Made by a program: the position numbers and the translations under genes
The notes under the pieces: generated by a model
The model's input: only the letters and a program-made list of their open reading frames with translations
What the model was told of the DNA's origin: nothing
Database searches by the model: none
Assembly (NCBI GenBank): GCA_032718475.1
Contig: JAUCBJ010008167.1
Coordinates: 3,730-67,729, forward strand
Length of the DNA stretch: 64,000 nucleotides
Source: Nemertoderma westbladi
Lineage: Eukaryota > Animalia > Xenacoelomorpha
Reading direction: 5' to 3'
Shown here: in pieces, positions 1-30,289 of the stretch
How positions within the stretch are numbered: the first letter of the stretch is position 1
Layout: each line of letters opens with the position of its first letter

Positions 1-526
1 GGGACGAACTGTGTTGCATCGGAGTGGCAAAGAATGCCCATGCCAGCAGGCTCTGAGGGTGACGTTGGAAGGAAGAGACCGAGGGAGGTAGAAGGGTGAA
101 AGGCTATGGGCAGATACCAGGGCAGAAAGGGACACAGTGGATTAACTGGGCTCCTGTGTTTGGATCCGCTCCCGGCAGGGAAAGAGGAAGAGGACGAGTC
201 TGTGGCGATGCCACTGATAGAGAGGACTGCATACTCGGCAGGGGAAGAGGAGGACAACGAGTTCAGGGCGATGCCGCCAATAGCAAGGATCGGCCACTCG
301 GACACTGACTGGGTGGACGGGAGAGTGATGGCCAGCGGGGGGAGAGCCTTCTGGGACAAACCCCATAAGCGGACCTGGGAGCTGGCAATGGACTTTGCGG
401 TGAGTACGATCCGGCTGGGCGAGCAACCGGGGACGGCACCATGAGTAGTGTTTGGAAAACGATGCCGAGGGTGGAGGAGGACATCGATATGGGTAGGGAA
501 GACAACGTCCAGATGTTTACCTACCA

Positions 527-1198
527 GTGGCTCCACAGACCCAGGAGGCCACGTGGACCCAAGGACGACTTGGGCGGGAGACTATGATACACGGTTGCGA
601 TTACTGTGGGAGATTAACCCATCAGCAAAAGAACTGTCTATACCATTACCAGAAGGGGACGGAGTGTCTTTACTGCCGCGAGTCTACACACAAGATGGGT
701 GCATGTCCGAGGTTGCACAACAAATGTTCGAAGTGCAAGTTTAGAGGGCACTTTGAGTGCCAGTGCGAGTGGATGGACAATGAGGAGAAATTCCACAATT
801 TCGAGGAGTGGGCTAACGTCGGAGTCATGACACGACAAAGGATGATGGCCCAGGAGTTCCAGTGGGGTTTCTTCAACATTAATATAGAAGCCCACCAGCA
901 GATTACCAAGAGGAGACTACCATTCATGGCTGAACATGTGCCGCGTGCGATGAAGAAGATCTTGTGGGACGCTACCAGAGGGAGACAGGAGGGACACTCA
1001 GTGGGACCACCTGGAAAGCGATACCGGGAGTTAATAACACCCGCGCCCAAAGAACCAACAATGGGGCTTGGTAAGACGGTATCAGCAAGGATGAGTAGCC
1101 TCAAGGGTAAACAGGAAGGGAGGAAGCGGCCCAGACAGGATGACGATAGGGGCAAGGAACTTAGATGGTTCCCAGAGGGTGCGGGAGGAGCAATGTAG
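527..1198 (+). pseudogene. C-terminal part of a retroelement accessory protein with three CCHC-type zinc knuckles
   Basis: Motifs CDYCGRLTHQQKNC, CLYCRESTHKMGAC and CSKCKFRGHFECQC, then FEEWA..RQR..WGFF, colinear with ORF 8942-10651. The upstream frame is broken by TAG stops. Confidence 0.7.
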
Positions 1199-4375: not shown

Positions 4376-6125
4376 ATACTTTATATTTTTTCTATCATCT
4401 ATACAATATGTTACCGCTGGTGAATGCCTACCACTTCATTCGTTCGTATACTTTTAAATTCGAGGGTTGGTCGAAATTATGGGACATTAGACAATAAGAA
4501 ATCAAGAAATGGAATGAACGTGTTGTTTAATAATTTCAATACTTTCCCATAATTTCCGTGAAACTTCGCCATTTGAAGAAATTTGAAGAACTCATATTGT
4601 CGAGTGTTAAGTCGATCGATAACTACTTTATCATATTGTTTGTAGAATAGTGTATTCCCTGTACTACCAACACTATGCGGAATATATTACTTTACCGCCT
4701 ACTGTGTATTGTATGTACAGTACACTGCTGGAGTTATATCACAACCCATAATGCTCTGTATAATAACCAATACTTACTACCTATAATAATATCACCAGCT
4801 GATACCCAAAAGTTAGTGTTTCATTATTTATTGTTTGTTATTATGTTGTACTGTATATTAAAAAGACGCTTAAAAATAAATTATTACTACAAAATAAAAA
4901 ATATAATTATAATAATAAAATAATAAAATATAAATGATGATAGTTAATGATAGATTAGTTAGATTAAACTAACTAAAATAGAAATAATAGAAATAATAAT
5001 GGTATAATTTTATTTATAATCAAATTATTATTATTATGTATAGATATATTCCACCACCAGCTGATGTTACTTAGGTTACAAAACATAAACAGGGTACAAA
5101 CATAAAAAAGATAATAAAATAAAATATAAATAATAAAAAACGTAATTAATTTATCTTAATCACATACCATATTTAACAAATTCGAGGTTACAATTTACAG
5201 AACACCTAAGGCAGTCCGGCTCCAAGCGGCACTTAGCACAAGAGGCACTTTAGATTTGCGAGTAGCCACTTATAGTTCAGTCCAGTCACATTTTATGCAG
5301 CCCGCTTGCAGCTAATTCGAAATAATTCCTGACAGTCAGTCTGTCAATGTAAATGTTATCAGCTACATTCAACGGCAGTGAAGCACACACACCCCGACTT
5401 TTGGAAAACGGCAAAAGTATAATTATAACAGTTCGCTTATGGCTTGCAGTTTTGACTCGCCCCATAGCCATGTCTGTCTTTCTGTCTTGGAGCTCCAACA
5501 GCAAAGGTCCCATAACCTTTGCGGAATCGATTGTGATTTCCAAGTACAGTAAAAGTCTCTCAATGCGATCCCTGGTGCCATTTAATATAATTATAATTAA
5601 CCTGTCTTTAGCCTAGGTACTAGGTAGTTTTTGTCTAAAGCTGAGGCCGGCAAAAACACGATGGATGTATGTATATTATGGTGTATGGATATGTGTATGT
5701 ATGTATGATAACAACCAAATGGTTTCAAACTATTTGCATGTATTGGAAAATTGTATTAGCATAAATAATTATCAAGATTAAGGAACAGGAAATTAAATAA
5801 CCACAACTACTCTTTCACAGCTGAATAACATTTCACTACTTATTGTCAATTGGAGTTACGTACATTAATTATATAGTTAATTATTATTCTATCTGTATTC
5901 AATCAGTTAGTGTAATGTCAAGCAGTACATCATTTATATACCGTATGTATCTATAGGGCCTATTGTCATCTTTATAATACTGTCATCAACTCAGGTTAAG
6001 GTCAATTGTAAAAGAAAAGGGCTTAGTATATCTGGGCTGGGACGTTTACAACAGCTGTCGATTAAACTAACAAAACTAGAAAACTTAACCAGGGTCCCAG
6101 CCGGGTACCAACGGCTGTTGGGTAG

Positions 6126-8038
6126 TATTAGAAGAGACAGTAACAATACCTGCAATATCCTACTGTAAAGTTTGTGAATCAAATCATAAATCCGGCCTTC
6201 TCACCAAAACAGTAAACTCTAAGTAAGCGAATATATTGCAGTATCTATCTCTTATAACCGGTGAGGCAGAAAACAGTCTACGAGCAGACAAACTTCGATA
6301 AAACAAAATCCCGCGCAGCGAATCCTAAAATCAGGCTGACTCACTGACGGACTAAGGGGCTCGTATACTTTGCCGCGGTGTGATTTATATGGTTGGGCTA
6401 AAGAGACGCTAGCTAGGTACAGAGGCAGACATTTGGAGATGTCTAACTAGCGGGCAAAGCGCAGTACGGACAAAAGTTAATTTTATATATTTTGAGGTGT
6501 AAATAATATCTAACGCGCGTGTGTGATTCTGAACAGTCAAAGCAGTTTTGCTCCTTCATATATATAATTACTGGGTACGGTGTACATTTTACGAATATTC
6601 TAATTTTGTAACTTGTAGGTCCAATACTCACGAATGATAAGGTTCCTTCCCCTCTTGCGTATTTCCAGGACTCAAATTCAGGCATAAGGTTAATGCTACG
6701 CCCAGAATTCGGCAATTTTAATTTACCAGGCCCCTAATACTAAGAAGAAATGTGTTAGTTTACTACAGTAGGCGTACGGTTACAAATAGCTATCCTGGCT
6801 CTTATCTAGAATTTTAGTCACCTAGGTAGGCTGGGTAACTTCCTATCAGGACGTTGGCGGGGACACGGCAGATGTTAGTATATCCCTAATAGCCTCAATT
6901 TATTTGCGCCTAGTCGTAAACTGCCCTACCGCCTGAACGGTACAATCCTAATTTAGGTGAAACACAGCAACCCTCCTAGCCTACAAGTTCTAATGCAATG
7001 GACACCGTTGTACTACAAATAGTCGCAGACGCACCTGTACTTAGCAAGAGTTAGGCGTACAGTTTGCTGCACCCTACCAATGTGTATGCTTTGTACCGGT
7101 GTGCCTACGTCCTATCTGCGTACTAGTATCTGCCTGCTCTTTCCCTCCCCCCGTAGGAATATGAAGGTCTACTGCGGTTTTTTCCTGAATTAAAACAGTA
7201 CAGTCCCTAAGATGTAATTTTAGGCGTACAGCGTGTCACTACTTCTACCTTTGATCTTTGGTCTTACGCTTAGGTAGCAAGGCGTCGAACGCTGTCTAAC
7301 CTTTCAGGCGATGGGCGAATAACTGAGATGGTATTGCGGGTTGTCTCCTGTCTACATTCCCTTGATGTTCCCGTTCATTGCTGCGGCCCGATCTATAGCC
7401 GGCCATCCTGTTCCTAAGTGTGTTCACCGTAGTGAATCATGGTGAAAAGAAAAGCAGGTAGCGGTATTTCTGAATTTATTGCAGATAATAATACAAAATG
7501 TAATCTGAAAACTAATGACAGAATAAACAAATATCAGATAACTCAGAATAATTGTGAGAGATAGATATACTGAAGATTGAGAAGTGAACTAATGAACGAA
7601 ATCGCACCTTTTATACCAAATTTGTGCCGCAATCAATCGAGAAAATTCTCGATTGTTCTATAGGTTCTAACAGGTTTTTAAAGATAGCTATTGGTCCAGC
7701 TAATATATAACTTGCACGACATTGGTTACAATCTAATAACTGCAGTCTCATTGGTTAATCTAGGTACAGACAAATGCAATTTAATTTGTAGCGGTCAATT
7801 TAAATGAGTTGAAATTCTGTACAAAAAATAAATCGCACTTACTAGGATTCGAACTCAATACCTACTACACATATAATTTCCAACGCTCTACCGACTGAGC
7901 TACTGAACCACTTGACTAAAGATCGTACAATAGATATAACAAATACAAATGAGGACTCAAAGCAATCTTTTAGCAAAGTTAATTCGAATAAAAATAAAAT
8001 TTTGAAAATCCACGGCATTTAGGGAATATAATTCTATA
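6126..8038 (-). repeat. 3' LTR (1913 bp)
   Basis: About 11 substitutions versus 23038-24950 by manual comparison. Preceded on the minus strand by a short purine-rich tract GGAGCGG (8045-8039). Confidence 0.95.
7823..7909 (-). ncRNA. tRNA-like Pol III unit inside the LTR (copies at 24735-24821 minus and 28215-28298 plus)
   Basis: A box TAGCTCAGTCGG, B box GAGTTCGAATCC and a downstream TTTTTT. No convincing cloverleaf or anticodon arm. Confidence 0.55.
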
Positions 8039-8941
8039 CCGCTCCATGAAAACAGGATATTATCGTGCATAAAATATACAGTTTTCACCAATAATCAATC
8101 AAACTATAGAATACTTAGGGCGTACTTACATATTTACAATTAAATTTCACAATACTTCCTTTCTACATAATGATTCGATACAAAATAATTACAAATTCAA
8201 ACTTTACGTATTTAAGGCTTTACTAAGTAAGTACAATATAAATCTAAATTAAATTCACCAATATAAATCTATTGCATCTCAATATTGCATAAATTCAAAC
8301 AATTACAAATACAAATAAATGAAAATCATAAGAAAGGCTCGCGAGTCTTCCATCTACTATTGCATCTCAAATATTGCATAAATTCAAATAATTACAAATA
8401 CTTTCGTGCCTAAATGTAGATTGCATAAGTTCGGAATAATTACAAATATGAGTCTTTCTAAGCACAAAACTTTCTAACTATAAACTTTCTAAATACAAAA
8501 TATAACACTGTACAAATGAAACTATAAGAAAGGCCCACGAGTCTTCCATCTACTCTTACTTTCTATTTCACTGTAAATACAAATACTGCTTATAAGATAT
8601 AAATTGCATAATATTCGGAACAATATAAATTGCATAAGTTCGGAATAATCACAAATATAAAATATAAATTCTTACAAAATATAAATCTTACTAAATATAA
8701 ATCTTACTAAATATAGATATAAACTGCATAAGTTTAGAATAATATAAACTCCTTTGCATCTCAAATATGAAACATAAATCTTTCAAATATGAGTTCCTTC
8801 TAAATATAAACTTTCTAAATTTCAAAAATTCGGAACAATACAAATTGCATAAGTTCAGATAAATATAAAAAATATAACTCAAATAAATCACAAATTCACA
8901 AGAAAGGCTCACGAGTCTTCCGTCCACCCTTGCCCTTCCTT

Positions 8942-10651
8942 TTATCGCTTAGTTGATCGAGCCCTGCCGCGTCCTCGAAAACTGCGCACAGGTGACTTTG
9001 CTCGCGATATGGGACTCGTGGGGCGAGTCACTGGTTTCGTTTGGACGTTGAGAGACGGTGCGACTATTTCCTCGCAAATTCGTCTATTTGGCATCCCAAA
9101 ACCTCGACCGATTCCTCGTGACCGATCAGTTGTCACTACAGTTGGTAGAACGTCTGGGAACTCGCGAGAAGCGGACGACGCAGACCCAAGAGCAGCTTGC
9201 GCCCCCTTTTGATCAGCTGGTGTGTGTCCCGATCCTCCTGTTGGTTCTCTAGGAAGCGATACCGTATCCCGAGTAATTCGAATAGTCGGCTCAACTCCCT
9301 TGCGTTCTTCTATATTAATAGACTTCTTTAACTGTTGGCCCACTTTCTGGACCCGTATGATCCTACCCTGTCCGTCCTCCCGAGGGTGACGTGCAGACGG
9401 CGCAACCGGAGTGGCTGGTATATTTTTCGCCTCTAGGACCTCCTCTTCCTCGAATACGCTCGCTCGTATACGTTTGTGGTAAAACGCGGCTCGGTACGCC
9501 CATGCGACGGTTAACCAAGCTCCTTTATTCCGCTTTTCAGTTCGGAAACGATCGAATTCACCATACGTGATGCGATTAACGACTTTCTGAAAATTCCACG
9601 TGTTTTTGTTATCCGGGTGAATCTGTAATAGATACTCGCGCACTACTCGGAATCCACTGTCGTGGGGCAAAATATCGACTACCTCGATAAGTTCGTCATA
9701 TTGGGGCATAGCGGAGATGTATCCTTCCGACATCATCGTTTGGGGATTTACCGCCCAAAATCCAAGATGCGCCCTCATCGGAAATCGTCTTCTTTGTGCC
9801 GATACATGTTCGTCGGCTAAATCTTCCCACTCATCGAATAATTTTCTCACGAGTTTTACAGATTCGTGTTCATAGGGTATGTCTCTCAGTTGGCATTCAG
9901 ATGCTCGATGCCCTTTTATATTGCAATAAGTACATTGAGCCATAAATCTCCAGCAAGTATAAAAGGTATGAGACCCTTGATCTCCACACCATCCACAGAT
10001 TAGCTGAGTCGTAGTAATGTGCTTTCCACTACACTTTGTCATATGATGTCCAGCGACGCCACATTTACCACACATCGTATTGGCAGGGTACCACACTCGT
10101 TCATATATAAGATCTCCAATCGGTCGAGCGCTTCCGCCCACACTATAATCGTAATCATCTGGATCTATGGGTTGGTAGGTTTCTGAGGGTTGTATACAAA
10201 CTATAGCATCTGTTGCTTCAAGTTGTCGAATCTCCGTCTGAGATTTCTTCGGGAGGTTCCTTTCTATCTCAAGAAGTTCCTCTAAAGGATCGTCAGTGAT
10301 CGTAGTAGTTACTTCGAAATCATCACCAAGGTGACCGATAGGAGCGCGCGTCTGCCGTGATTCATCCGTAATCTCCACGATACGTTCTCCTTCATAGGGT
10401 AACAATGTAAACATAGATGGTCTTTCGATAAGAGATCCCGCACAGCGAAGATATACGTCTCGAAATATACTAAATCCTGCTCGAGTAAAGGCATTACGCT
10501 GAGCGTCGGAGTTGTAGAAGGGTTCAAGGAATCGTCTAAACACGTCGGTATGAATTCTCCCTTCCATGTAGAACGTATGATCTTCTCCGAGACAAAGTGG
10601 ATGTCTTTTGAGAGTCCGAGACACAATGTCGGCGATTAGGCAAACATTCAC
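8942..10651 (-). CDS. Accessory ORF, C-terminal part: three CCHC-like zinc knuckles and a basic RG-rich tail
   Basis: Motifs CGKCGVAGHHMTKC, CGWCGDQGSHTFYTC and CTYCNIKGHRASEC; ends RGRGRARSTKR. Overlaps the upstream ORF in the +1 frame and starts with GTG, so it is probably one frameshifted gene with 10536-12650. Confidence 0.75.
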   Translation of the reverse strand: MNVCLIADIVSRTLKRHPLCLGEDHTFYMEGRIHTDVFRRFLEPFYNSDAQRNAFTRAGFSIFRDVYLRCAGSLIERPSMFTLLPYEGERIVEITDESRQTRAPIGHLGDDFEVTTTITDDPLEELLEIERNLPKKSQTEIRQLEATDAIVCIQPSETYQPIDPDDYDYSVGGSARPIGDLIYERVWYPANTMCGKCGVAGHHMTKCSGKHITTTQLICGWCGDQGSHTFYTCWRFMAQCTYCNIKGHRASECQLRDIPYEHESVKLVRKLFDEWEDLADEHVSAQRRRFPMRAHLGFWAVNPQTMMSEGYISAMPQYDELIEVVDILPHDSGFRVVREYLLQIHPDNKNTWNFQKVVNRITYGEFDRFRTEKRNKGAWLTVAWAYRAAFYHKRIRASVFEEEEVLEAKNIPATPVAPSARHPREDGQGRIIRVQKVGQQLKKSINIEERKGVEPTIRITRDTVSLPREPTGGSGHTPADQKGAQAALGSASSASREFPDVLPTVVTTDRSRGIGRGFGMPNRRICEEIVAPSLNVQTKPVTRPTSPISRAKSPVRSFRGRGRARSTKR

Positions 10652-12650
10652 TGACGACTCTTGCTAAATAATATTGTAGGACCGCTCTTGGAGGTGACGT
10701 AATAGCCCAATACACGCATCCTCTCCATTTAAGCTGTGATTCAAACTCACTCATATCTGGAGTATCACCTTCTCCATAAGTCTCAATATACTTGGTTCTC
10801 TTACTTTCCTTATAATCCCAATTGAATAACAGGTAGGAAATGTATCCAGTTCCAGTCTTCTGAGTATTATACTCACGAAAATATCCCTGTTCTATAGACC
10901 ACAAAATAAGAGGTCGAGTGTCGACGTAAGGTGTCGGTAGTCGGTCATCGCTGTCCGTCATGCCGGCGAAGTCGCTAATTAAGTCCTCCCTTACTCCTGA
11001 TCCAATCTTTACAACAGTTTTATCTAAAATCATGTTTCTTACCATCTTCGGTATCATTCTAGCGTCGATATTACAAGCTTGGTCCATCTTCTTTACTATG
11101 TGTCGCTTTGTATTTGCTGGAGGTATCGGCATTCGTTTGTCGCTCCTCTGTCTACTGAAAACGTGCAGGACTCCGTCCGCCGCTCTAATTTGTATAGTCT
11201 TAGAAGTCAAACTCTGTTGATGACTGCCGCCCTCGTTATCGTAAAACATGTAACCATTTTCCTGAAACGATCTAAACGTTCTATTCCATTCATCCAACAA
11301 TTCTTCCGAAGGTTGCCAAATCTTCTCTATGTCCTTATCATCTTCGAAACGAATAACCTTACCTCGCCAATCCGCGGCAATATCTGTATCCGACTCGAAG
11401 GTTCCGGTTCCAATCCATAAACGAATCGTCTTGGTTAAATATCCTTTCAAATTACTCGGAGCTATATCGGCACCAGCTCTATCCAGTTCCTTAAAGTCTT
11501 GAATATGAGGTGGAACGTTGTACACGACCTTTTGAGTAATATGTCTACGTAAATCATATATCTTACTCATATCGCTGAAAACAACTGCAGGAAGAAACTC
11601 CAAGTTTGAAATGATTTCTGGATGATCCACGATGGGTATTTCGTACGTCGTATCCTGTCGGACTGGTATACTAATAGGAAAATTGAGTGTCGTACTCAAT
11701 GGTTTCGTAGTTGAAGTACTATATGGTTGCATTTCTCTTGTCCTCTCCGGGGATGCAATCTGTAGTCTCTGAATAACGTTTTGAGCAAAGTTTATGCTCT
11801 CGAAAACTTCCGGTGTCATCTCCTTAGCTGGGGTTTGATCGTGTGACGTCCAATGGTAAGGTAGGCTCGCGAGTCTTCCGCCCCATTCTTCCATCTCACA
11901 TTTCTCGAAAGCCTTGTAGGCTCTGTATAGGCTAAGAGCTTCTTTCTTTTTGCGGGTTGACTGATTCGCCTCGTCCAGCGTAAGTTCAAATACATCGGGT
12001 TCAACAACCTTAGGTGGGTAAACGACAGTTTCTCCCGCCTTTGGTCCGGTCATAGCAAATGAATGATATGGATTCGATAAAGGATACCCTCCTTCCTGGT
12101 AGCGTAGTTGTTGATGGTTCGAACACCTCGCCAGTATCGGTTCGGGATTTTCCTTATTCAAACGCATCGGAATCGCATTTCGTTGTTCGCGCATACAAGA
12201 ACCGCATTGATAATAAAGTTTATAAACTGAAAATGCTTCCTTGGTTTCTCTATCGTCCCCTCGAGTTCGTCTGTAAAGGTGCATTCCATCGAATTCATCG
12301 CGTACCGCGGGCATAGGTTCGTGCGCCTTTAGGTATTGCATGGTATGATACAAACGACTAATTTCAGTATCGGGGTCTTCGCTAATGTCTCCCGTATCAC
12401 ACAAAGCGTCGTACGGGTAAAGTTCATTGAAGGTTCTGCGCAAACTTTCGATTCTTTCATTTAATGCGTTTTGTCTTCTCTTTAATACATTCGAGTCATA
12501 TTTAGTTCTCGCGAGTTTCGCTGTACTTTCTGATAATTCTTTTATACCAAATATAGTGTAGTCCTTGGCTCCAAATCTTTCGAATGGCGCTGCTGCCTCC
12601 TCTTGGATATCATATCCCCATCTCGGCTCTCCTTGTATCCCTTTCTCCAT
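10536..12650 (-). CDS. Accessory ORF, N-terminal part: DEDDy (WRN/EXD/MUT-7-like) 3'-5' exonuclease-like domain
   Basis: ExoI-like FYDNEG (11246-11229), TIQIR..DGVLHVF, ExoII-like ILDKTVVKIGSGVREDL (around 11030-10980) and YVDT. There is also an N-terminal CGSC...CSNH putative zinc site. Confidence 0.7.
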   Translation of the reverse strand: MEKGIQGEPRWGYDIQEEAAAPFERFGAKDYTIFGIKELSESTAKLARTKYDSNVLKRRQNALNERIESLRRTFNELYPYDALCDTGDISEDPDTEISRLYHTMQYLKAHEPMPAVRDEFDGMHLYRRTRGDDRETKEAFSVYKLYYQCGSCMREQRNAIPMRLNKENPEPILARCSNHQQLRYQEGGYPLSNPYHSFAMTGPKAGETVVYPPKVVEPDVFELTLDEANQSTRKKKEALSLYRAYKAFEKCEMEEWGGRLASLPYHWTSHDQTPAKEMTPEVFESINFAQNVIQRLQIASPERTREMQPYSTSTTKPLSTTLNFPISIPVRQDTTYEIPIVDHPEIISNLEFLPAVVFSDMSKIYDLRRHITQKVVYNVPPHIQDFKELDRAGADIAPSNLKGYLTKTIRLWIGTGTFESDTDIAADWRGKVIRFEDDKDIEKIWQPSEELLDEWNRTFRSFQENGYMFYDNEGGSHQQSLTSKTIQIRAADGVLHVFSRQRSDKRMPIPPANTKRHIVKKMDQACNIDARMIPKMVRNMILDKTVVKIGSGVREDLISDFAGMTDSDDRLPTPYVDTRPLILWSIEQGYFREYNTQKTGTGYISYLLFNWDYKESKRTKYIETYGEGDTPDMSEFESQLKWRGCVYWAITSPPRAVLQYYLARVVSECLPNRRHCVSDSQKTSTLSRRRSYVLHGRENSYRRV

Positions 12651-13330
12651 AATTAGAGGTGTAGTTACATAATCATTACTACTAGAGGGAATACAACAGA
12701 GTTTGTAGTTAGTTGTGAGGAGACGTGAGAGTTTCGTCTGCCCTTTGGGCTCGACAACGCTCTAACCTCCTACCCATAGCCTAAGATCTAGGGTTTCTTT
12801 AATGACACGCTGCTTCTTATCTAAAATTTTTGCCGAAATAAAAACGAATTTGGGCTAAACTGGCTGTGAGTCTAAAATACTCACTTTTTGATCCCAAACT
12901 ATTATCAGAAAATAAGCAGTCAAGAATTAGTAATAAATATAGGGGAGTCTATTTTGACGTAACTTATTGAAACAAGACCGTGTAAAATTTAATTTTAATT
13001 TTAATTAAAATTTAATTAAAATTTTAAGAAAGGCTCGCAAGTCTTCCTCTCTTGTTTCTCTAATTTTAAGTTCCACCCGACTGTACCCTGAAATCTATTC
13101 ACTGGAGAAAATTTTAAAAATTTTTCAAATCCAAATGGATTGTCTAAAATTTCGAAATGTCTCAATATTGTGAGTTCCAAGTAGAATTCCATTTCTTATA
13201 CCTACAAATCCCGCTCCTATGTGACACATAAGGGTACTACCCTCAATGTTCACATATAAAGACAATGGAATTCTACCGCTGTCCTTACTACAGTGTACAG
13301 GTACGTGGAAATCTATTTGTAAACTCCTAA

Positions 13331-15913
13331 TTATTTACTAATATTAGGTGGAGATTTGTAATCTCCAGACTCGTTACGAGTCTCTTCAAGAAGTACGAGA
13401 CGTTGTGTCGGTCTGTCAACTGTACGACCGTCAATTGTCCGTACCGTAACAGTTCTTGTCACTCCATCCATAGATGGATGTGTGGCTAAAATTACACCTG
13501 TTATCCAGAAGCGTCTTTTTAGATTCACTTCTGCTAACAGCACGTGATCTCCCGGCTTTAATGCGCGGGTGTTATTGTACCAGTTTGTTCTGGCAGAAAT
13601 AGAGTGCAAATAATGGTTTTGCCATATTTCCCAGAATTTGTTAGCTAGTAGTTGCGTGATTTTCCACGCTTTTCTACCGTAGCTATCGCCTTCTATTGGA
13701 ATAGAAATAGGCGTCAAAGTTGTCGGTGCCTGCATAAGCAGGTGTGCCGGTGTCAAAGCAAACTGAGATTGTTTGTCATCGGGTACTAATACTATTGGTC
13801 TAGTATTTAGTATTGCCTCGATTTCAACAAACAGTGTTGTCAGTTGGTCGTCTGTCAATATGTGGTTTACTGGAATGACCTTTGCCATGGCTGTCTTTAT
13901 AGATCTAATCAATCTCTCCCAGACTCTGCCTCTCCATGGACTATCTGGAGGATTAAACTTCCAAACAATCTTGTAAGGACGTAGTTCGTTTGAGATTTGA
14001 TCATGATCTAATTTCTTAAAGGCTCTAGCAATCTCATTTCGAGCACCAACAAAGTTTGTCCCTTGGTCTGAGTACAAGCATTTCACTAGTCCGCGTCTGG
14101 CGATAAATCGCCGCAATGCTAGTATAAACGCGTTGGTGGAAAGATCCATCACACGTTCAATATGAACTGCCCTACTGGACATATATGTGAAAATCAGTCC
14201 CCAGCGTTTTACTAGTATACGTCCACGTTTCGTATGTATGGGACCAAAGCAATCAATTCCAGTCTCTGTAAAAGGTGGTCTGAATGCTTGAAGTCGTGCT
14301 TGTGGAAGTTCACTCATTTCTTGGGTACCTATTCTAGAATGTACCTTTTTACAAATAATACACGTACGTGTCACTGAACTTATTGCTTTACTGGGTCTAA
14401 TTAATACAAATCTTGTACGTAAGTAGGAAAGACAGTGGTGTCTTCCAGCGTGTTTCAGATGAAAATGTGCGTCCAGTATCATTGCACGTTGTAGTTCGTG
14501 ATGCTGCGGTATTATTATTGGGTACCTAAAGTTTGTGTTAAAGTCAATGTTTTGAAGCCGAGATTTATGACAAATTAAGCCATTATAAATTATCGGACTC
14601 CAACTCAATATTGGTGACGACTTGATTGGTTGACCTTGATTTATAGATGTGAATTCGCGCGCGAAATATCGCAGTTGGTAATGGCGAATTAATTTAATCT
14701 CACACCTGTCAATCTCAGTCAATGTAAGTCGACGTGTGAAGTCTCGTTTGCCTTTAACGTATTGTACAAAACGTACAATCCACGCTAATTTTCGGCAAGC
14801 GTTTGTCCAAGAATCTGTTAGGTTTACAATACGGTCGACGTAAGTATTTGTGACGTCATCAGGTAAGTCAATGGAGATTTTGGAAGGTTTTGATTTACTA
14901 GAAGGGCCCATGGGTCCGCCGGTAGGTATTCCCTTGTTGACTGTTGATCCGTCCGGGTCTACAAGTAATTTGTCCTTCTTCGTCTTCTTACCTTGATTGT
15001 CAGTACTTTGTAAGTCGATCGTTAATGGTGGTTTGAACTCTATGGGGTCAGTGGGTTTCGGTAAACTTATTTTTCTGCCGATATTAATCCCGGGTCTCAC
15101 CATAGGTTGCAAGTTTGGTATGTCTCTTGAGCGCAGAGTAACACCTGTATTTACATTAGCGTAGGTACTACCCACATCTGTAATACATGAGGTTTCACCG
15201 TGCTTATGGTTGCTCAAGTGCGTCAAAATTGGTAGTTTGTCAATACAAGGCCGCTCCAATAGGGAAACTGCGGCTTTACTGTTAGTGAATACATTACTAA
15301 TGTCCGGTTGAACATTTTGTGACATGTCTGGTAAAATCTTTCGCGGAACATCCGGCGAAATATCTAGTGACGTGTCTGGCAAAACGTCTGGTTGACCGTC
15401 TAGTAACGTATCTGGTTGTTTGTCAATAGAAGGCCGCTCCAATAGAGAAACTGCGGCTTTACTATTTGTCAGTATGTTACTAGTGTCTGGTAGAACATTT
15501 TGTGATATGTCTGGCAAAATGTCTGGTTGGCCGTCTAGTAACGTGTCTGTTTGACCGTCTGGTAACGTGTCTGGTTGACCGTCTGGCGATATGTCTGGTG
15601 TAGAAAGGCTCGCAAGTCTTCCGTTCTTGACCTTTGAAGTTATCGCTTTCCATTTCGCCTTCGGTTTTTTCTTGAGTTTAGCCGCCGTCTTTTTCTTTGC
15701 TTTCCCTTTCTTTGGTTTTTTAATTTCCGCGTCTTTTGGGATAGTGTTAGACTTGTTGTCGTATAGTGGCGGCCAATGTTGTATTGATCCCTGCAAGAAC
15801 CGTGGTCCGTGCTGCCAAAATTCTTTGTTCTCCGGTTTACAAAATTCCTCAGGCATCATTCCTCGCGACGCAATATCGGCTGGGTTTTGTGGTCCGGGAC
15901 AATGTCGCCAATC
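13331..15913 (-). CDS. Pol C-terminus: end of RNase H region, low-complexity spacer, integrase (HHCC, DDE core, Pao-type C-terminal domain)
   Basis: Motifs DWRHCPGPQNPADIASRG, HFHLKH...CIICKK, GIDCFGP, SDQGTNF, WERLI and DGVTRTVTVRT..RPTQRLVLLE. In frame with the upstream pol ORF, separated only by TAA at 15916-15914. Confidence 0.92.
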   Translation of the reverse strand, partial: DWRHCPGPQNPADIASRGMMPEEFCKPENKEFWQHGPRFLQGSIQHWPPLYDNKSNTIPKDAEIKKPKKGKAKKKTAAKLKKKPKAKWKAITSKVKNGRLASLSTPDISPDGQPDTLPDGQTDTLLDGQPDILPDISQNVLPDTSNILTNSKAAVSLLERPSIDKQPDTLLDGQPDVLPDTSLDISPDVPRKILPDMSQNVQPDISNVFTNSKAAVSLLERPCIDKLPILTHLSNHKHGETSCITDVGSTYANVNTGVTLRSRDIPNLQPMVRPGINIGRKISLPKPTDPIEFKPPLTIDLQSTDNQGKKTKKDKLLVDPDGSTVNKGIPTGGPMGPSSKSKPSKISIDLPDDVTNTYVDRIVNLTDSWTNACRKLAWIVRFVQYVKGKRDFTRRLTLTEIDRCEIKLIRHYQLRYFAREFTSINQGQPIKSSPILSWSPIIYNGLICHKSRLQNIDFNTNFRYPIIIPQHHELQRAMILDAHFHLKHAGRHHCLSYLRTRFVLIRPSKAISSVTRTCIICKKVHSRIGTQEMSELPQARLQAFRPPFTETGIDCFGPIHTKRGRILVKRWGLIFTYMSSRAVHIERVMDLSTNAFILALRRFIARRGLVKCLYSDQGTNFVGARNEIARAFKKLDHDQISNELRPYKIVWKFNPPDSPWRGRVWERLIRSIKTAMAKVIPVNHILTDDQLTTLFVEIEAILNTRPIVLVPDDKQSQFALTPAHLLMQAPTTLTPISIPIEGDSYGRKAWKITQLLANKFWEIWQNHYLHSISARTNWYNNTRALKPGDHVLLAEVNLKRRFWITGVILATHPSMDGVTRTVTVRTIDGRTVDRPTQRLVLLEETRNESGDYKSPPNISK

Positions 15914-18900
15914 TTATTTTATTGAACGGTCTAGAATTTCCGCGCGACGGTTAGCTACGAATGTCTTGAATTCAAGTGTGTCGTTGTTTATGTAAAATAA
16001 AACCAACGTCGCGTCAGTCCAATAAAATATCTGTAAACTTGACTGTAGTTCTGTCTGTATAAGGTTCACGATGGTGGTTGACAGGGCTGCGGCTTGTAGC
16101 TCAGCTCGTGGTGTCGTCATATACTTAGTAGGCATTGTTTTTGCCTTAGAAGTAATGAGCGAAACATCGAATTCTTCTGAGTCTACTTGTCTGCGCAAGT
16201 ACGCTGCCACACCAAAGCCGTTGTCACTGGCGTCAGAAAAACAATGTAATTCCAAGTTGTCAGGAAATGTTGTTTGTAATGGAAAGTAGACTCTGGGTAT
16301 GGAATAATCCTCTAGCGAAGATAATTCTGCTTCCCAGGTTTTCCATAAGTCCACTTGGTCTGATGAGATCGGCTCGTCCCATGTCAGTCCATCCTTCCAA
16401 ATACTGCGCATATAAATGCGGGCTTGCAGTATTATTGGACTGATGAATCCTAATGGATCGAACAATCGTCTCAATTTTGACAAGCATGATCTCTTTGTCA
16501 GTGTGTTTTCTTGACTGTCCAGTCTCACCTTCACTCGAAAGTTGTCCGTGTTTGGGTCCCAAAAGAGCCCCAACACCTTGGTCGTCGGTAGTGGTTCGAA
16601 CTCTAGGTCTATGTCACCACCTCCACGCTCAGTCGTTCCGAATGAGTCTACTAATTCGGCACTGTTTGAGGCGAATTTGGTGAGGTTAAAACCTCCGCCC
16701 GCTAAGCAGTCCCGTAATTGATGTGCTACTGTTGTAGCACGTTCTACTGTGTCGCAACTCTGTAAACCGTCGTCGACGTAAAAGTCACGTTCCACAATCT
16801 TAATTATCTCTGGGTCATACATGTGTTTCTGATCCCTAGCGGCTTGCTTTAGGGCGTACATTGTACAGTTTGGGCTGTCCCTGGCACCGAAAACGCGAAC
16901 TTGCATTTGGTAAGTCGCCGGTGGTAGACTTAAGTCTCCTTCCGGGTACCAGAGGAACCTCAAACTGTCTCTGTCTCGCTCTAACGCTCTCACTTGGTGA
17001 AACATAGCTTCGACGTCGCAAGTAAAAGCTACTTGACGCTGACGGAAGCGCATAATCACCCCCATAAGATAATTATTCATGTTTTGTCCATCCATCAACT
17101 CGCTATTGAGGGACATTCCCTCAAACAGAGCCGCACAGTCATTGACTACACGTACTTTGTCTGGTTTGTCGGGGTGTCTCACGTAGTGATGTGGTAAGTA
17201 GTATGTCTGGTCTGTTACTATCTCTGGGTTAGTCATTCGGATAGCGTATCCCTTGGACAAATACGTCTCCATCTGAGTGTTGTACTGGAGATGGGCTTTC
17301 TCGTCCTTTAATAGACGTTGTCGTATTGAGTGTAGACGTCTTAAAGCTAGTGGATAGTTATTTATGAGTTTAGGACGTTGGTCACGCCATAGCATCCCTA
17401 CCTCATAATGTCCGTCCTCCGTCTGGCGGATAGTATCTTCCATGATCCTCAAAGATTGTTTCTCCTGTTCCGACATACATGGTTCGTAGCTACCAGGTTC
17501 AGCTGTATCTTGTTCTAACCACCTGATAGTCTTCTCCGTTAATTCTTTGTCCAATACAGCTTGTTCCACTTGATGATTTCTCAACGCGTCATCATCGATA
17601 TCGACGGGCATTGTTGAGGTTATTTGTGTAGGTAGACTCACAAGCCTTCCGGCGTTATCATCTGTCGTCGATGGAATCTCTGGCTGACTCGTCTTCTCCC
17701 CAAGTTCTAAACTCACCTGGTGGATTAGCTGCTCCTTGTGACTTATCATGCTAGTTACACGTCTGTCATGTTTTGTCGAATGTAGTGTAGTATGGTCCAC
17801 GTCGTGTGAAAAGGAATGAATTGAATTTGTAGTTAATAAACTACATGTACTTTGTACATCGTCTTCCTCGTCACTTATGTCCAGTGTGCGCACAGGCGCT
17901 CGAGTATACCACCCTATCGGCGTTCTACAGGCATATGCGTTTCCCACTATGACTGCCGATGGTCTGGTTTCCCACACTTGATGTAGGTTGAATTGGTCTG
18001 TCCCGATCAGCATTGCTACCGATCTATAATTGACAGGACATTCAGGTACACCAAGGTGTCTGAAATACTTACGGTCCTCCAAGGATTGTTCTGGGACAGG
18101 ACCTAGTAGGTTACTAAAGTCCTTGGTGGCCGCAAAAGTCAAATCCTTAAAGGGTAACAAAGACCTCTCCTTTTCGCTGTGTTGCGATTTTGGAAGAAGA
18201 GTGTCTAAGTTTAACTTAACTCGTGTCACTGGTATTGCAAGTTGTCCGTGCATACTACTTACGGTGTAACTGACGCGCTTACCTTGTCTGAGATCCGTCA
18301 CGACGTCAGCTATCTGCTCATCCACGTAGCTGTGAGATGAGGCTGAATCCAGGATAGCGTAGATTCTCTTGCACCCTTTTGTGCCAGTAATCTTAATCGG
18401 AATTACGCTGAATCCCTTTAGTTGGTCAGTCGTCAGAAGCACGATCGATGGTTGTTCGTCTCCATCGGAATATACGTCGTCGTCTTCTGACTCTTCGTCC
18501 GACGATCCGGATTGTTCTGAGAAACAATCCTTAATATGTGTCACGAAGGTTGGAGTCGTTTTCGATTCTCGATTCTTGTAGGCCGTATTACATTTCGCTG
18601 CTGCTTCCGGGTGTTCCCTGGCGAAGCGTTTTGTCGGCGTGTGGCTGTCTGTGTGGAGCAGACCGTCGTGGTTGCGTCCACAGGATGGACAAGTGTCGGT
18701 ATTTGGGCAATCTTTGCGAACGTGTCCGTGTCGCGTACACCGCCAACAAGAGTCCAATGGCCGTATCTGCAGCCGTCGTTCTTCCGAGTTTAACTCGCGA
18801 AACTGTTGACAACCTCTCAACTTGTGACCGATATACCGCTTGCCTAAATGCTCGCAGTATTGGCAGCCGCTGAAGTCGGTACTGAGTTGCTGTCTAGTCT

Positions 18901-20689
18901 GTTTTATCCCAATGGGCGCAGATACCCTACTACCGTCCGAGAATTGTCGTGTTTCCGTCGGTGTGGCGTAAGTGGCCGTCTTGGTGGATGTTGTCTGGGG
19001 TTTTTGTCGGTTTGAGGATGGCAAGGTGATTCCTTCTGCTACGATGTGCTGGTCAGTGTAGTTGGATCGAGTTTCTACCACTGCTTCCCTGGATATCAAA
19101 AGGTACACATCTTCCAGTTTTAAGAATCCACCCCGCTCTTCCCGCTGGTATTCGATCTTCCTCCACTCCCGACGAAGTCGATGGTGGAGTCGTCCTATGA
19201 TCTTTAATAGGACTGTAGGGGTATTCCCATAGTCAAGTTGTCCAATGGATCTCAAAGTAGTGATAGCGTTCTTTATTTCGTCAGCCAGTTTCAATAAGTC
19301 GACGGGTTTAGTAATAGCCCCTCCCTTACAGAGTTCCTCTATCACTGACCTGGCCATGCTGACTGTACCTCCGTATATCGAAGTTAAACGATCGTACGCT
19401 AGTTCGAAGGCGTCCGGTACACCAACGAAGGTCTCCGCCAAACGTTTAGGTTCTCCCGACAACGTTTGAAGCAGGTAATTAAACTTCTCCCGTGATGTAA
19501 AGGCGCACACGGCGATCTGAGATTCGATATAGTCTACGAAAGTGTGCCAGTGTTTTGAGCTACCGGAAAACTTAGGTGGTTGTTGCACCGGTAGTCCTTG
19601 TCTAGCTGCGAATTTCGCTATCTCCTCGGCAACGTTCAGAGTTTCGCGTCCTTGGTTGGTAATCTGGTTGATGTCCCTTCTTGGCGCTTTTCCCTGATAC
19701 GAAGTATTGGTCGATGGTATTTGTCTTTGCGGAATCTTTGGGTTTCTATTGTGTTCGAATTCGGAATTTCTCGGACTGTCGGTGTGAACTTCCTCCAAGC
19801 GTTCCTCGATCTGAGCCAACTTGTTAACAACTGGTCGCAGGATGTCGGCGAACTGTTGTGTACTGATTGCATCCGTTGGTTGTAACGCCTTCTGTGTTGG
19901 TGTATTCTGTGGAGGATTGTCGATAAATGAATTATCCGAACGCTCACGTTTACATTCGTCGGCCGCTCCTGTTCTAAATACCTCGCGTTCCGGGTAATCC
20001 GACTCGCTTGAAGTACTACTGTCGCCTGGATACGGTGGTCGACGTGCTCGTGTCCGTTGCGTCGTCCGAATTCTAACGTTTCGCTTTGGAACATCGTCCA
20101 CTGGTCTCCGTTGTTCGGTAGGCTCACAAGTCTTCCTCGAAGTCGTAGATTGCGATGTAAACTGGTTGAACGGTCGCGTATCCACTGGTCTCCGTTGTTC
20201 GGTAGGCTCACAAGTCTTCCTCGAAGTCGTAGATTGCGATGTAAACTGGTTGAACGGTCGCGTATCCACTGGTCTCCGTTGTTCGGTAGGCTCACAAGTC
20301 TTCCTCGAAGTCGTAGATTGCGATGTAAACTGGTTGAACGGTGGTCGGACGACAGCTTTTGAATCCAAAGGCCTTGTAGGCCTAAACGTCATTGGGTATT
20401 CGTAGTGCGTAACTGGTTTAGGTGTCAAAGGTGGACTCACCTGTTTTGTCGTTAGTAGTGCAGGTCCAGTCAACAAACTACTACGATCTGTAATCGGTGG
20501 GTTACTTACCTTGACTTTCAAAATAGGCGACGACGTTGCTCTTGACGGTATGAATTTGTCTGGAATAACCAACCTGTGTTCCGTCGCACCATGGATAGGA
20601 GAAATATCACTACTACCCGCAATCGAAACAGGTTCCTTAGTCATAATTGGTGCAAACATAGGAGTTACTTGTGGGAATCGTTGACACAA
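15914..20689 (-). CDS. Gag-Pol polyprotein: Pao gag, zinc knuckles, aspartic protease, reverse transcriptase, RNase H
   Basis: Motifs PPKFSG (gag), CWRCTRHGHVRKDC and CPSCGRNHDGLLH, ILDSAS (protease, about 18350), YLPHH..KVRVVND, FYVDD (about 16775), FDPLGF, FSDAS and TPRAEL. Confidence 0.95.
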   Translation of the reverse strand: MCQRFPQVTPMFAPIMTKEPVSIAGSSDISPIHGATEHRLVIPDKFIPSRATSSPILKVKVSNPPITDRSSLLTGPALLTTKQVSPPLTPKPVTHYEYPMTFRPTRPLDSKAVVRPPFNQFTSQSTTSRKTCEPTEQRRPVDTRPFNQFTSQSTTSRKTCEPTEQRRPVDTRPFNQFTSQSTTSRKTCEPTEQRRPVDDVPKRNVRIRTTQRTRARRPPYPGDSSTSSESDYPEREVFRTGAADECKRERSDNSFIDNPPQNTPTQKALQPTDAISTQQFADILRPVVNKLAQIEERLEEVHTDSPRNSEFEHNRNPKIPQRQIPSTNTSYQGKAPRRDINQITNQGRETLNVAEEIAKFAARQGLPVQQPPKFSGSSKHWHTFVDYIESQIAVCAFTSREKFNYLLQTLSGEPKRLAETFVGVPDAFELAYDRLTSIYGGTVSMARSVIEELCKGGAITKPVDLLKLADEIKNAITTLRSIGQLDYGNTPTVLLKIIGRLHHRLRREWRKIEYQREERGGFLKLEDVYLLISREAVVETRSNYTDQHIVAEGITLPSSNRQKPQTTSTKTATYATPTETRQFSDGSRVSAPIGIKQTRQQLSTDFSGCQYCEHLGKRYIGHKLRGCQQFRELNSEERRLQIRPLDSCWRCTRHGHVRKDCPNTDTCPSCGRNHDGLLHTDSHTPTKRFAREHPEAAAKCNTAYKNRESKTTPTFVTHIKDCFSEQSGSSDEESEDDDVYSDGDEQPSIVLLTTDQLKGFSVIPIKITGTKGCKRIYAILDSASSHSYVDEQIADVVTDLRQGKRVSYTVSSMHGQLAIPVTRVKLNLDTLLPKSQHSEKERSLLPFKDLTFAATKDFSNLLGPVPEQSLEDRKYFRHLGVPECPVNYRSVAMLIGTDQFNLHQVWETRPSAVIVGNAYACRTPIGWYTRAPVRTLDISDEEDDVQSTCSLLTTNSIHSFSHDVDHTTLHSTKHDRRVTSMISHKEQLIHQVSLELGEKTSQPEIPSTTDDNAGRLVSLPTQITSTMPVDIDDDALRNHQVEQAVLDKELTEKTIRWLEQDTAEPGSYEPCMSEQEKQSLRIMEDTIRQTEDGHYEVGMLWRDQRPKLINNYPLALRRLHSIRQRLLKDEKAHLQYNTQMETYLSKGYAIRMTNPEIVTDQTYYLPHHYVRHPDKPDKVRVVNDCAALFEGMSLNSELMDGQNMNNYLMGVIMRFRQRQVAFTCDVEAMFHQVRALERDRDSLRFLWYPEGDLSLPPATYQMQVRVFGARDSPNCTMYALKQAARDQKHMYDPEIIKIVERDFYVDDGLQSCDTVERATTVAHQLRDCLAGGGFNLTKFASNSAELVDSFGTTERGGGDIDLEFEPLPTTKVLGLFWDPNTDNFRVKVRLDSQENTLTKRSCLSKLRRLFDPLGFISPIILQARIYMRSIWKDGLTWDEPISSDQVDLWKTWEAELSSLEDYSIPRVYFPLQTTFPDNLELHCFSDASDNGFGVAAYLRRQVDSEEFDVSLITSKAKTMPTKYMTTPRAELQAAALSTTIVNLIQTELQSSLQIFYWTDATLVLFYINNDTLEFKTFVANRRAEILDRSIK
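20098..20340 (-). repeat. 84-bp tandem repeat (about 2.9 copies) in gag
   Basis: Encodes the repeated 28-aa unit PFNQFTSQSTTSRKTCEPTEQRRPVDTR. Confidence 0.95.
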
Positions 20690-22149
20690 TCTTTTACTAA
20701 TTGTCGTTCCCGTCCGGGTGCTCCTACGCTTCCTTCCTTCTTCCGTTCCTGAATTTGGCGATGTCTTACCTCTATCTGGTCCAAGTCATGTCCGTCTCGA
20801 GATCTCATTGATCGATCGCGGGCCTTTTGATCCAGATCTTCCTCGGCGTTCGCTAATTCTCTCGCCTTCTTCTCGAGTTCGAAATGAAGTTTAGCTGTCT
20901 TCTCTCGTTGTTCCGTTTGTTGTCGTTGCGCCTCAAACTCCGCTTGTCGTATAGCGGATTGAGCTTTTATTTGCCGTGTTTTCATTTCGGCCCGTGCTTC
21001 CGAAACTAACCTTTCTCGCTTTAATTCTGCCGTTTGTCGCTCTAATTCTGCCGCTGCCGTTTGTCGCTCTAATTCTGCCGCTGCCGTTTGTCGCTCTAAT
21101 TCTGCCGCTGCGTTTCGTTGCGCTAAATCAGCCGCTGCCGTTCGTTGGGCAATGTCTACCTCTAACCTTTCTACTTCAGCTGCTTCTAATTCAGCTTGTT
21201 CCTGTAGATGAGAGATTCTCGCTACGTTCGCAACGCGTAGCTTCTCTTCCTCTACTGCTGCCTGCATCACTAGAAGTTGAGCTTGTTCCTCCATTTCTCG
21301 TCGTTGTCGGTAGAATTCTTGCTGTTGTCGAGCAACTTCTGACGTGACCATACTTCCCTCGCCGATTTCGCTACGAATACTTACCAACGATTGATTTAGT
21401 ATTCCTGGTACTAGTTCGATTTGTGCGAGTGAAGTTTCCCTCGTATATTCCGGCACGGTTTCCAAATCGCCGACGTCTTCGCCGCACATACGTAAGTGGT
21501 CCGTCAGATGTTTCAATTGTCCATCTAGTCGGTACAGTTCCTGTTCTTCCTCGGGCTGCAATAATTCGTCCGAAACTGACTCACCTAACAACTGGTCCGC
21601 TTGTTCCTGTTGTATCTGCCTAATCGTCGACTTAAACTGAATCAGTTTCTCTCTAGCGATCATTAGTTTCTCGAGGATTCTAAGTTGTGTGTCCATATCC
21701 TGTCTCTGTCTAGCTAGATCTTGTAGACTGATAAGGTTATCTACGGACTTATGTACTCTACTTTGTACTCTAACCTGGAGGGTGTAGAACTCAAACCGAG
21801 ACATCGGAGCGGTCAACTCGTCTAATATGCGTTGGCCTTCTCCAATACTCCTGGTAATATGCGCCATGTAACCGCCGACGCTTCTAACCACACTCTCCTG
21901 GCTTCCTGCTGAACTTACCATGTCCGTTTCCCTGTATCTAGGTTGCGGAACAGTTAGAAAGTCCTCGGTCCTGCCGTCGCCTCGTACTACGGCATCCGGT
22001 ACTCCCGTTGGATGTACTGGTGACGCACACGGTGTAGGTTCGGTAGGCTCGCGAGTCTTCCCCTGTAGATCTTCCGCTGCTGACTAATCCGCGTCACATG
22101 AGTCATAGTCGGTAGGTGTATTCTTCGTATAGTCTTGTTTGTCACTCAT
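20665..22149 (-). CDS. Gag N-terminal coiled-coil region (ORF1), interrupted by one in-frame TAG
   Basis: E/Q/R/A-rich helical sequence with AAAELERQT repeats. The ATG at 22149 is in frame with 21921, with a TAG at 22086-22084. It joins the next ORF by a -1 shift between about 20785 and 20665. Confidence 0.8.
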
Positions 22150-22951
22150 TTCGGTAGTTGTAAGTCAAGTAAAGTGAGTGTCAAAGTATCAAACTTACCG
22201 TATTTTATCTAAACGGTACTAATTACAGTCATATAAAATTAGCCTACCGGCCGATTTTATAGCAGATGGATAAAATTAGCCTAAACGGCCAATTTTACAG
22301 CAAATAAATGTCACGGTATAAGTATATAATAAAATTAGCCTAGCGGCCAATTTTATAACAAATAAATCGGATAACGATATGCGTTATCAAAAGGTAAATA
22401 AAATACAATAATACGGACTAATTCAGCAATGAACAAAGAAATCGTACGGAATGCATAAATACTTGAGACAGTGGAACCCACAATAATTTTAACTAATACG
22501 GTAATGCCTAACTTATGTATGCAACTTTTCGAATTCACCCACTCCAATAATTCTCCAGAAAAACAGATTCCCAGATACAAACCGGACGTGAACCTTTCCG
22601 TTTTTAACGTTGCGGACGAAGCGCGATTTTCCCAACCAAAGTTGTTGAGTTATCTATCTCCCAAACTTGCTAAACACGGTCTTGCTCCCGTTACAGTCTA
22701 GAAATGAGTTCTGAATCCTGAAAAACAAAAGAGTTAGGTTTTACTTTTACGAAAATTTTTGTACCGGTACAATATGGTATTTAAACCCTTTTAAACACCG
22801 GTATTCAATTCCAAAAAATATTTTACACGCGGTTCAAATCAAATTTTATTTCAAAAAAAAATTAGCACTTAGCTAATCAAATATAAATTTTTACCTCAAA
22901 ATACAAAATTTTCAAATAACTTTAGTCCTACCGAACCGTAGTTCAGTAAAA

Positions 22952-23037
22952 CATATTCCTACTATTTTAGGAAATATGTTAAATAATACCATATTCCTAC
23001 TATTATAGGAAATATGTTAAAATAATCATATTCCTAC
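22952..23037 (-). promoter_or_regulatory. Non-canonical primer-binding region: three copies of GTAGGAATATG (37-38 bp period) abutting the 5' LTR
   Basis: Plus-strand CATATTCCTAC at 22952, 22990 and 23027. No TGG-starting tRNA PBS is present. Confidence 0.6.
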
Positions 23038-30028: not shown

Positions 30029-30289
30029 AATAATAATAATAATAATTGGTTATTTATATAGCACTTTTCCACTGCTCGGCATACTCAAAGCGCTTTTATT
30101 ATCATTACCCCATCAAAGCCAGGTTCCCATTATACCGCTGGGTTGGCATAGGCAATAATGTCTAAAGTGTCTTGCCTAGGGACACAACAGTGAAAAATTT
30201 GTACAGCCTCTAGTCGGATTCGAACCTGCGCCACCAAACACTATTGTGTAAGCAGTTCAGGCGCCATATCCACTCGGACACTGCGACAT
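30029..30289 (-). mobile_element. tRNA-derived SINE with a (TTA)n tail
   Basis: A box (TGTCCGAGTGG), B box GGTTCGAATCC, central GTGTCCCTAGGCAAGACACTT and a TTA-repeat tail. Same family as 57936-58223. Confidence 0.85.

Follow-up and report, generated by a model that had tools for sequence, protein, structure and literature searches.

A BEL/Pao retrotransposon of Nemertoderma westbladi with a predicted DEDDy exonuclease and three zinc knuckles in the env position

Introduction

Third open reading frames encoding DEDDy exonucleases with intact catalytic residues have been described in the long terminal repeat (LTR) retrotransposons Juno and Vesta and in the Terminons of bdelloid rotifers, where their function is untested (PMC5408684); the available passages of PMC6431247 give the same account. 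For the BEL/Pao elements, the profile of the international virus taxonomy committee (ICTV) lists lengths of 4.2-10 kb, LTRs of 0.2-1.2 kb, a primer site of 18 nt that pairs with tRNA-Arg or tRNA-Gly and no third gene other than, in some cases, an env-like one (PMC8742986). Here we describe a BEL/Pao element of 18,825 bp (6126-24950, minus strand) in a stretch of 64,000 nucleotides, hereafter the window, from the xenacoelomorph Nemertoderma westbladi (assembly GCA_032718475.1, contig JAUCBJ010008167.1, positions 3,730 to 67,729), whose env position is occupied by a gene combining a predicted DEDDy exonuclease of the WRN/EXD2 type with three CCHC zinc knuckles. Juno and Vesta are gypsy-like elements and do not belong to BEL/Pao.

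An earlier note on this DNA, made from the letters alone, had proposed such a nuclease and knew of no description of the idea; the DEDDy third ORFs of bdelloid rotifer LTR retrotransposons had in fact been published (PMC5408684, in which the word 'Pao' occurs once). The open literature searched holds no nuclease gene in a BEL/Pao element, that paper being the sole relevant match, with Repbase, Dfam, GyDB and subscription papers lying outside the search. In the available passages of PMC3118150, PMC554778 and PMC8556966 the word 'exonuclease' is absent, and in those of PMC2774666 and of the hookworm Atlas preprint 'nuclease' occurs only off-topic. An env-slot DEDDy gene is already known from the rotifer elements, and it is the BEL/Pao carrier and the triple-knuckle architecture that are new in the literature searched. 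A nematode Cer element may once have been drawn with an exonuclease domain, which makes an earlier BEL/Pao case possible.

The third gene between the integrase and the 3' LTR

As the earlier note had described, 3.7 kb of sense coding sequence lie on the gag/pol strand between the integrase (13334-15913) and the 3' LTR; they consist of two open reading frames (ORFs). ORF A (10539-12761, minus strand) has its first Met at 12650 and encodes 704 aa, ORF B (8945-10663, minus strand) encodes 573 aa, and the two overlap by 125 nt in different frames. The chance of such lengths at the local base composition is 3e-20 for ORF A and 8e-16 for ORF B. In ORF A, an N-terminal part of 430 aa (11361-12650) without family or structure match precedes the predicted exonuclease core (10728-11360), which comprises FYDNEG with the ExoI D-x-E (11246-11229), IQIRAADGVLHVF (11195-11157) and KIGSGVREDL with the ExoII D (11009-10980). 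ORF B contains the three knuckles, at 10072 (CX2CX4HX4C), 9997 (CX2CX5HX4C) and 9934 (CX2CX4HX4C), a conserved W...GF block and a basic tail; Pfam zf-CCHC matches it with E=0.035, under the family cut-off. The exonuclease motifs and the knuckles had been read from the sequence before and were located again; the tail, once taken to be RG-rich, is of low complexity, its composition being rich in R, S, P and G with few RG pairs. By eye, the N-terminal part of ORF A also displays a CxxC at 12183-12206 and a C-x2-H about 25 residues further on (~12110-12125), a possible additional zinc site.

Since the peak hydropathy over 19 residues reaches only 1.07 in ORF A and 0.88 in ORF B, neither contains a membrane segment. 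An env-like third gene was rejected on this ground and for want of a family match, in agreement with the non-env character attributed to the gene from the start.

The two frames meet in a break zone (10539-10750, minus strand) that contains or adjoins two rival candidates for the ExoIII motif. Because the frame of ORF B is interrupted by stop codons at positions 10753 and 10666, and that of ORF A stays open to 10539, the break can be located only to within 10750-10539; this qualifies the +1 shift of the earlier note, whose change of frame stands. The break is probably damage to the examined copy, because an abundant contig across the zone differs by gaps that are not multiples of three and because gag-pol, too, is interrupted by a stop and by a shift between frames. 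From the first Met to the end, ORFs A and B together span ~1235 codons, close to the ~1230-aa product of the earlier note, and it is rather likely that unbroken copies encode this as a single product.

A predicted DEDDy exonuclease domain in ORF A

The assignment of ORF A to the WRN/EXD2 type of DEDDy-like domains finds its main support in the ESM Atlas, where residues 430-700 score 0.93 to clusters of Werner-like exonucleases and have 175 out of 256 features in common with them; 24 of the 30 matches fall in PF01612 clusters, and PF01612 is present in 38-50% of the members of the two clusters shown. Weaker signals come from profiles and involve a second, broken copy of the domain in another unit of the window (see below). 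When a profile of the two copies is compared with 30 bacterial WRN-like exonucleases, the ExoII stretch outscores 100 of 100 column shuffles; a WRN-like profile run over 1986 window segments ranks the ExoII piece of the second copy first, with E=2.7; and in profile searches of the PDB EXD2 surfaces on the ExoII stretch, with E=2.1 in one and, at rank 6 of 14, with E=0.82 in another. In ORF A the ExoI D-x-E and the ExoII D stand in DEDDy order and spacing (YDNE, KIGSGVRED), and these acids, as YDNE and K.G....D, are retained in both copies, which are ~30% identical.

Several results weigh against this assignment. Pfam, NCBIfam, PDB and HMMER searches return no significant match for the domain, and the Pfam family that the earlier note had suggested as a check, DNA_pol_A_exo1 (PF01612), has no match above its curated cut-off in ORF A or its parts. 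About 4-10 of 100 shuffled proteins also score 0.9 in the ESM Atlas, the calibration of which is not meant for protein parts. The comparison of the two-copy profile with the WRN-like proteins receives an hhalign probability of 7.7% over 21 columns. The MAFFT register to WRN-like proteins covers 20 of 57 conserved columns, compared with a mean of 15 and a maximum of 21 for shuffles, and was rejected as evidence for a DEDDy domain, being no better than shuffles. A single-sequence AlphaFold model, with a predicted local distance difference test score (pLDDT) of 31, and the fold search made with it, in which Z peaks at 3.0, are uninformative. With a borrowed WRN-like alignment, the pLDDT rises to 75-89 over ExoI and ExoII and stays below 60 in the ExoIII region; this model aligns with EXD2 over 102 residues (root-mean-square deviation 3.2, Z 9.4; E=4e-5 in Foldseek), a match that is circular because of the alignment borrowed. 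Profiles of 40 proteins, mostly short RNase D-like bacterial ones, and of two WRN-like sequences yielded no match in the window.

The missing significant match and the alignments no better than shuffles could mean that the domain is something other than an exonuclease, or that the gene is a captured fragment in decay whose likeness to the motifs is due to chance. We consider this unlikely in view of the ESM Atlas result, of the same acids retained in a 30%-identical relative within a second BEL/Pao-derived unit and of the frame-keeping variation across the family. The DnaQ-like fold signal on which the earlier proposal hinged is seen in the ESM Atlas and, more weakly, in the profiles. Taking together the ESM Atlas match, the ExoI and ExoII acids common to the diverged relative and the weak EXD2 matches, we judge it probable from sequence comparison that the domain has a DEDDy (DnaQ-like, WRN/EXD2-type) fold.

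As to catalysis, the predicted domain has about even chances of being active because the alignments disagree on ExoIII. One alignment places this motif at YGEGD, in the frame of ORF A just upstream of the break; the rival candidate, GEDACIGLL, is in the frame of ORF B before the stop at 10666; another alignment finds no acid there, or an Asp without Tyr when read through the break. In the second copy, an Asp resembling that of ExoIII stands in LSQRELRRTAAD at 43228. By analogy with Egalitarian, EXD1 and Maelstrom, a catalytically dead exonuclease fold could serve as an RNA-binding or transport adaptor that would take over from an envelope in conveying element RNA to the germ line. The disagreement over ExoIII, the Tyr of which may be absent in both copies, would accord with such a role, as would the presence of Egalitarian among the fold matches of the circular model; retention of the three ExoI/ExoII acids in both diverged copies and the ExoIII-like Asp of the second one speak against it, and make the adaptor improbable.

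Occurrence outside the window, in the family and elsewhere in the window

Word-indexed homolog searches retained none of 7153 near-length candidates for ORF A and none of 4282 longer candidates for ORF B, and alignment of the exonuclease with word-indexed candidates gave 0 of 356 at E<=10. HMMER found no match to ORF A among 1.84 billion representatives at E<=0.001, none of 44 pattern matches in JGI metagenomes was confirmed, and tblastn against plasmids returned three chance matches only. The best ESM Atlas score of ORF B, 0.83, is a lead only. Judged by these searches, the third gene is an orphan outside the window in all databases searched.

Within the family the gene is widespread. Four of nine listed sequencing runs were examined; parts of the stretch are present in five listed runs, belonging to four studies. 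Contigs cover all 30 bins of the element, including the accessory region, in three of the four runs, and in the remaining run 29 bins are covered, contig depth not being a measure of copy number. Among 126 indels, the 12 best supported all lie outside coding sequence, though coding sequence makes up 66% of the stretch. There are 32 listed contig pieces, with 33,317 further ones unlisted; for eight of the ten listed pieces in the accessory ORFs, at divergences of up to 15%, the gap count is divisible by three, the two exceptions being one piece in the tail of ORF B and the abundant contig across the break zone. All three ORF B substitutions among those listed are synonymous. Two further points go against the proposed nuclease function: no ORF A substitution is among those listed, which leaves the nuclease without a ratio of nonsynonymous to synonymous change, and contig joints at 10495-12511, 10383-12491 and 8351-13048 remove the nuclease part or the whole gene, so that derivatives without the gene exist. 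Overall, the observations fit a third gene that belongs to the whole family and is constrained.

Two relatives of the gene are found in the window itself. The first is in an internally deleted, BEL/Pao-derived unit (39427-45523, plus strand) between 1.26-kb direct repeats that differ by 25 substitutions and 3 gaps; no target duplication was seen at its flanks. This second unit retains, at 40690-40803, what is left of a BEL/Pao reverse transcriptase (RT)/RNase H (E=8e-6, 50% identity) and, downstream of it on the same strand, the broken homolog of the exonuclease domain (42634-43311), which is ~30% identical, is spread over three frames and has both of its pieces outscoring 100 of 100 shuffles. 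Further fragments of the repeat of this unit occur at 30029-30289 and 55790-58905. The second relative is a triple-knuckle ORF at 497-1195 (plus strand), which over 109 aa shows an identity of 23% with ORF B and scores 38 bits against the knuckle region (shuffle maximum 23); the element to which it may be assigned extends beyond the window edge. A fragment captured privately by one copy, an outcome that the earlier note had foreseen, was rejected, as the gene is present in contigs of all four runs and has a diverged relative in the second BEL/Pao-derived unit. Because diverged relatives (30% for the nuclease, 23% for the knuckles) sit in the window, the third gene is, as far as sequence tells, of an age that allowed it to diverge from one BEL/Pao family to another, and its presence in at least two diverged families of one genome suggests an old, selected accessory function.

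Structure and insertion of the element

The BEL/Pao identity given in the earlier note was borne out by Pfam matches of gag-pol to DUF1759 (E=4e-11), Peptidase_A17 (E=5e-42) and DUF5641 (E=2e-21). On the minus strand, an N-terminal gag region with a 472-aa open frame (20668-22083), coiled-coil-like and without Pfam match, is followed by Gag (DUF1759, CCHC), protease (DSA), RT (YVDD) and RNase H (15917-20785) and by the integrase with DUF5641 (13334-15913). In the examined copy the gag N-terminal frame is out of register with the remaining gag-pol, and an in-frame TAA divides the RNase H frame from that of the integrase. Frame-keeping tandem repeats with units of 12/24, 84 and 27 nt lie in pol and gag at 15230-15600, 20097-20348 and 20979-21161.

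The 5' LTR (23038-24950) and the 3' LTR (6126-8038), both on the minus strand, 1913 bp long and with TA...TA termini, are 99.4% identical, differing by 11 substitutions and no gap; a short purine run stands directly upstream of the 3' LTR. The element is flanked by a 5-bp target-site duplication, GGTAG (6121-6125 and 24951-24955). Its insertion is recent, since contigs in all four runs examined join the flanks without the element. The LTRs, the target duplication and gag followed by the domains of protease (PR), RT, RNase H (RH) and integrase (IN) support BEL/Pao membership at the sequence level.

About 420-450 nt into the 5' LTR are TATAAAA and a string that we take to be initiator-like, and near its start are what we take for tRNA-like A and B boxes. 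The latter, at ~24750-24825, also occur in other LTRs and are retained in a solo LTR of a related subfamily (28086-29941, plus strand), which is 86% identical, has an apparent 5-bp duplication TCTGC and ends in TA...CA. A tRNA gene was rejected for this stretch, as ARAGORN calls none; Rfam, whose single match is a chance one, does not call the stretch either. The boxes are possibly an RNA polymerase III promoter or an insulator. The observed/expected ratio of CpG is 1.14 in the element and 0.76 in its flanks.

The length of the element raises the question of proofreading, for which nidovirus ExoN provides an analogy in a large genome. The third-gene product could similarly be a proofreading partner of RT, by which the element would sustain roughly double the genome length that is usual in BEL/Pao. 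Such a role would be in line with 18.8 kb as against 4.2-10 kb in the family (PMC8742986) and with the proofreading by DEDDy domains in A- and B-family polymerases (PMC5408684); it appears very unlikely, given that the gene is separate and not fused to RT, that the LTRs and the accessory gene themselves make up much of the extra size and that copies of the family diverge freely.

Primer site, repeated motif and possible role of the third gene

No tRNA-type (TGG-type) primer site was found after the 5' LTR. The 12 nt at the primer-site position (23026-23037, minus strand) are a perfect complement of LTR positions 875-886 (chance ~2e-4), that is, ~24065-24076 in the 5' LTR and ~7153-7164 in the 3' LTR. 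The primer word has three tandem occurrences, and the solo LTR retains the pairing site with one C/T change. Tf1/sushi elements prime themselves: what follows their 5' LTR is complementary to RNA of the element and not to a tRNA. As the pairing site here lies ~430 nt past the predicted transcription start, self-priming would require splicing, cleavage or trimming. The missing tRNA primer site is a departure from the ICTV profile and no ground against the pol-based placement in BEL/Pao.

In the interior of the element the 17-nt motif GGAAGACTYGYGRGCCT has ten sense-strand occurrences between 8335 and 22061 (minus strand), at 8335, 8531, 8905, 11863 (inside ORF A), 13031, 15606, 20120, 20204, 20288 and 22045. 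The scan returned 14 matches, three of which are the reverse reading of near-palindromic sites and one an antisense match with three mismatches. Three of the ten copies are due to a tandem repeat; none occurs elsewhere in the window, the second unit at 39427-45523 included, and none is expected by chance. The Gs of the motif are constant and the Cs vary. It forms no stable hairpin (0.4-3.8 kcal/mol) and its copies occupy two codon phases, for which reasons a fold and a peptide motif were rejected. The contig joint 8351-13048, by which the whole accessory gene is lost, connects two copies of the motif.

These features invite the possible, though doubtful, explanation that the third gene is an anti-silencing factor, which might bind or over-trim PIWI-interacting or small interfering RNAs (piRNAs/siRNAs), compete with Nibbler, MUT-7 or EXD1, or mark the element's own copies through the motif in the manner of VANC. 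Nibbler, MUT-7 and EXD1 are among the nearest structural relatives, partly on the word of the circular model; the family is young and abundant; and the motif is repeated ten-fold, in the element only, in the way that VANC targets are repeated (PMC5735166). The high CpG ratio of the element relative to its flanks would also agree with an escape from silencing, but youth alone accounts for it. Moreover, the second unit lacks the motif, constant Gs with varying Cs are what one would expect of a site on a single strand more than of methylated DNA, and rotifer DEDDy ORFs have no clear tie to copy number (PMC5408684).

The explanation that we tentatively prefer, with a confidence that falls short of even, is that the third-gene protein is an in-particle helper which, while the element is being copied, would bind its RNA and trim nucleic acids from their 3' ends. 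It would be made from a subgenomic message and loaded on element RNA by its knuckles, with GGAAGACTYGYGRGCCT as the candidate site. RNase D- and RNase T-type enzymes trim single-stranded 3' tails back to duplex, and the predicted nuclease might chew back such tails in the same way. The most attractive substrate would be the self-primer, in which the 12 nt behind the 5' LTR are paired with LTR positions 875-886. Its 3'-OH must fall exactly at the LTR edge, for which reason it would need trimming most. Against this in-particle role it has to be counted that the link between GGAAGACTYGYGRGCCT and the knuckles is a candidate one and that Gag's own knuckles could bind the motif. The full scenario, in which a BEL/Pao lineage would have replaced both its tRNA primer and its envelope, by self-priming from LTR RNA and by a WRN/EXD2-type triple-knuckle exonuclease that recognizes GGAAGACTYGYGRGCCT and shortens the self-primer as far as the LTR edge, so that the element would encode an enzyme for maturing its primer, is a long shot. 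With the element's own self-primer and the repeated motif as two candidate substrates, the role of the third-gene nuclease is directly testable.

Other features of the window

A single-exon ORF of 542 aa at 52214-53839 (plus strand) is F-box/LRR-like, with a weak LRR match (E=0.002). Fragments of RTs of non-LTR retrotransposons lie at 45544-46317 (minus strand) and 26067-26771 (RVT_1 E=2e-4, DUF6451), and a 233-aa ORF at 31119-31817 (plus strand) encodes a cysteine-rich small protein, possibly membrane-anchored.

Comparison with known systems

The element shares with the Belpaoviridae, as presented in PMC8742986 and the available passages of PMC3118150, its LTRs, a gag with DUF1759 and CCHC, the order PR-RT-RH-IN, Peptidase_A17, DUF5641, YVDD and a 5-bp duplication. 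It differs from described BEL/Pao elements by its 18.8 kb, its 1.9-kb LTRs with TA...TA ends, its self-complementary primer site and a third gene that is not env. Like Tf1/sushi, it has behind its 5' LTR a word complementary to its own LTR, here to positions 875-886. An accessory gene together with a short motif repeated along the element recalls VANC and the VANDAL elements; those are plant DNA transposons (PMC5735166), the protein is unrelated, and binding of the motif is putative in our case.

The exonuclease domain resembles those of WRN, EXD2 and MUT-7 (Nibbler), grouped in PF01612, in having the ExoI D-x-E at a strand end, then a Q/I strand and an ExoII stretch of the form L(P)....l.D..v.K.G.g...D, whereas ORF A has ~30 extra residues before ExoII, an identity of 14-20% and scores under every curated cut-off. 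ORF3 of Juno and Vesta is likewise a family-specific gene for a DEDDy-type 3'-5' exonuclease, placed downstream of pol in the env position and devoid of membrane or coiled-coil segments. Like that of the Terminons, it is classed as RNase D-like (DEED), and the account of it mentions no fusion to three knuckles (PMC5408684); the gene presented here has ~1235 codons and scores nearest to WRN/EXD2-type clusters. Nuclease cargo in the env slot, here a predicted one, is extended from the rotifer elements to BEL/Pao, with a different and much larger architecture.

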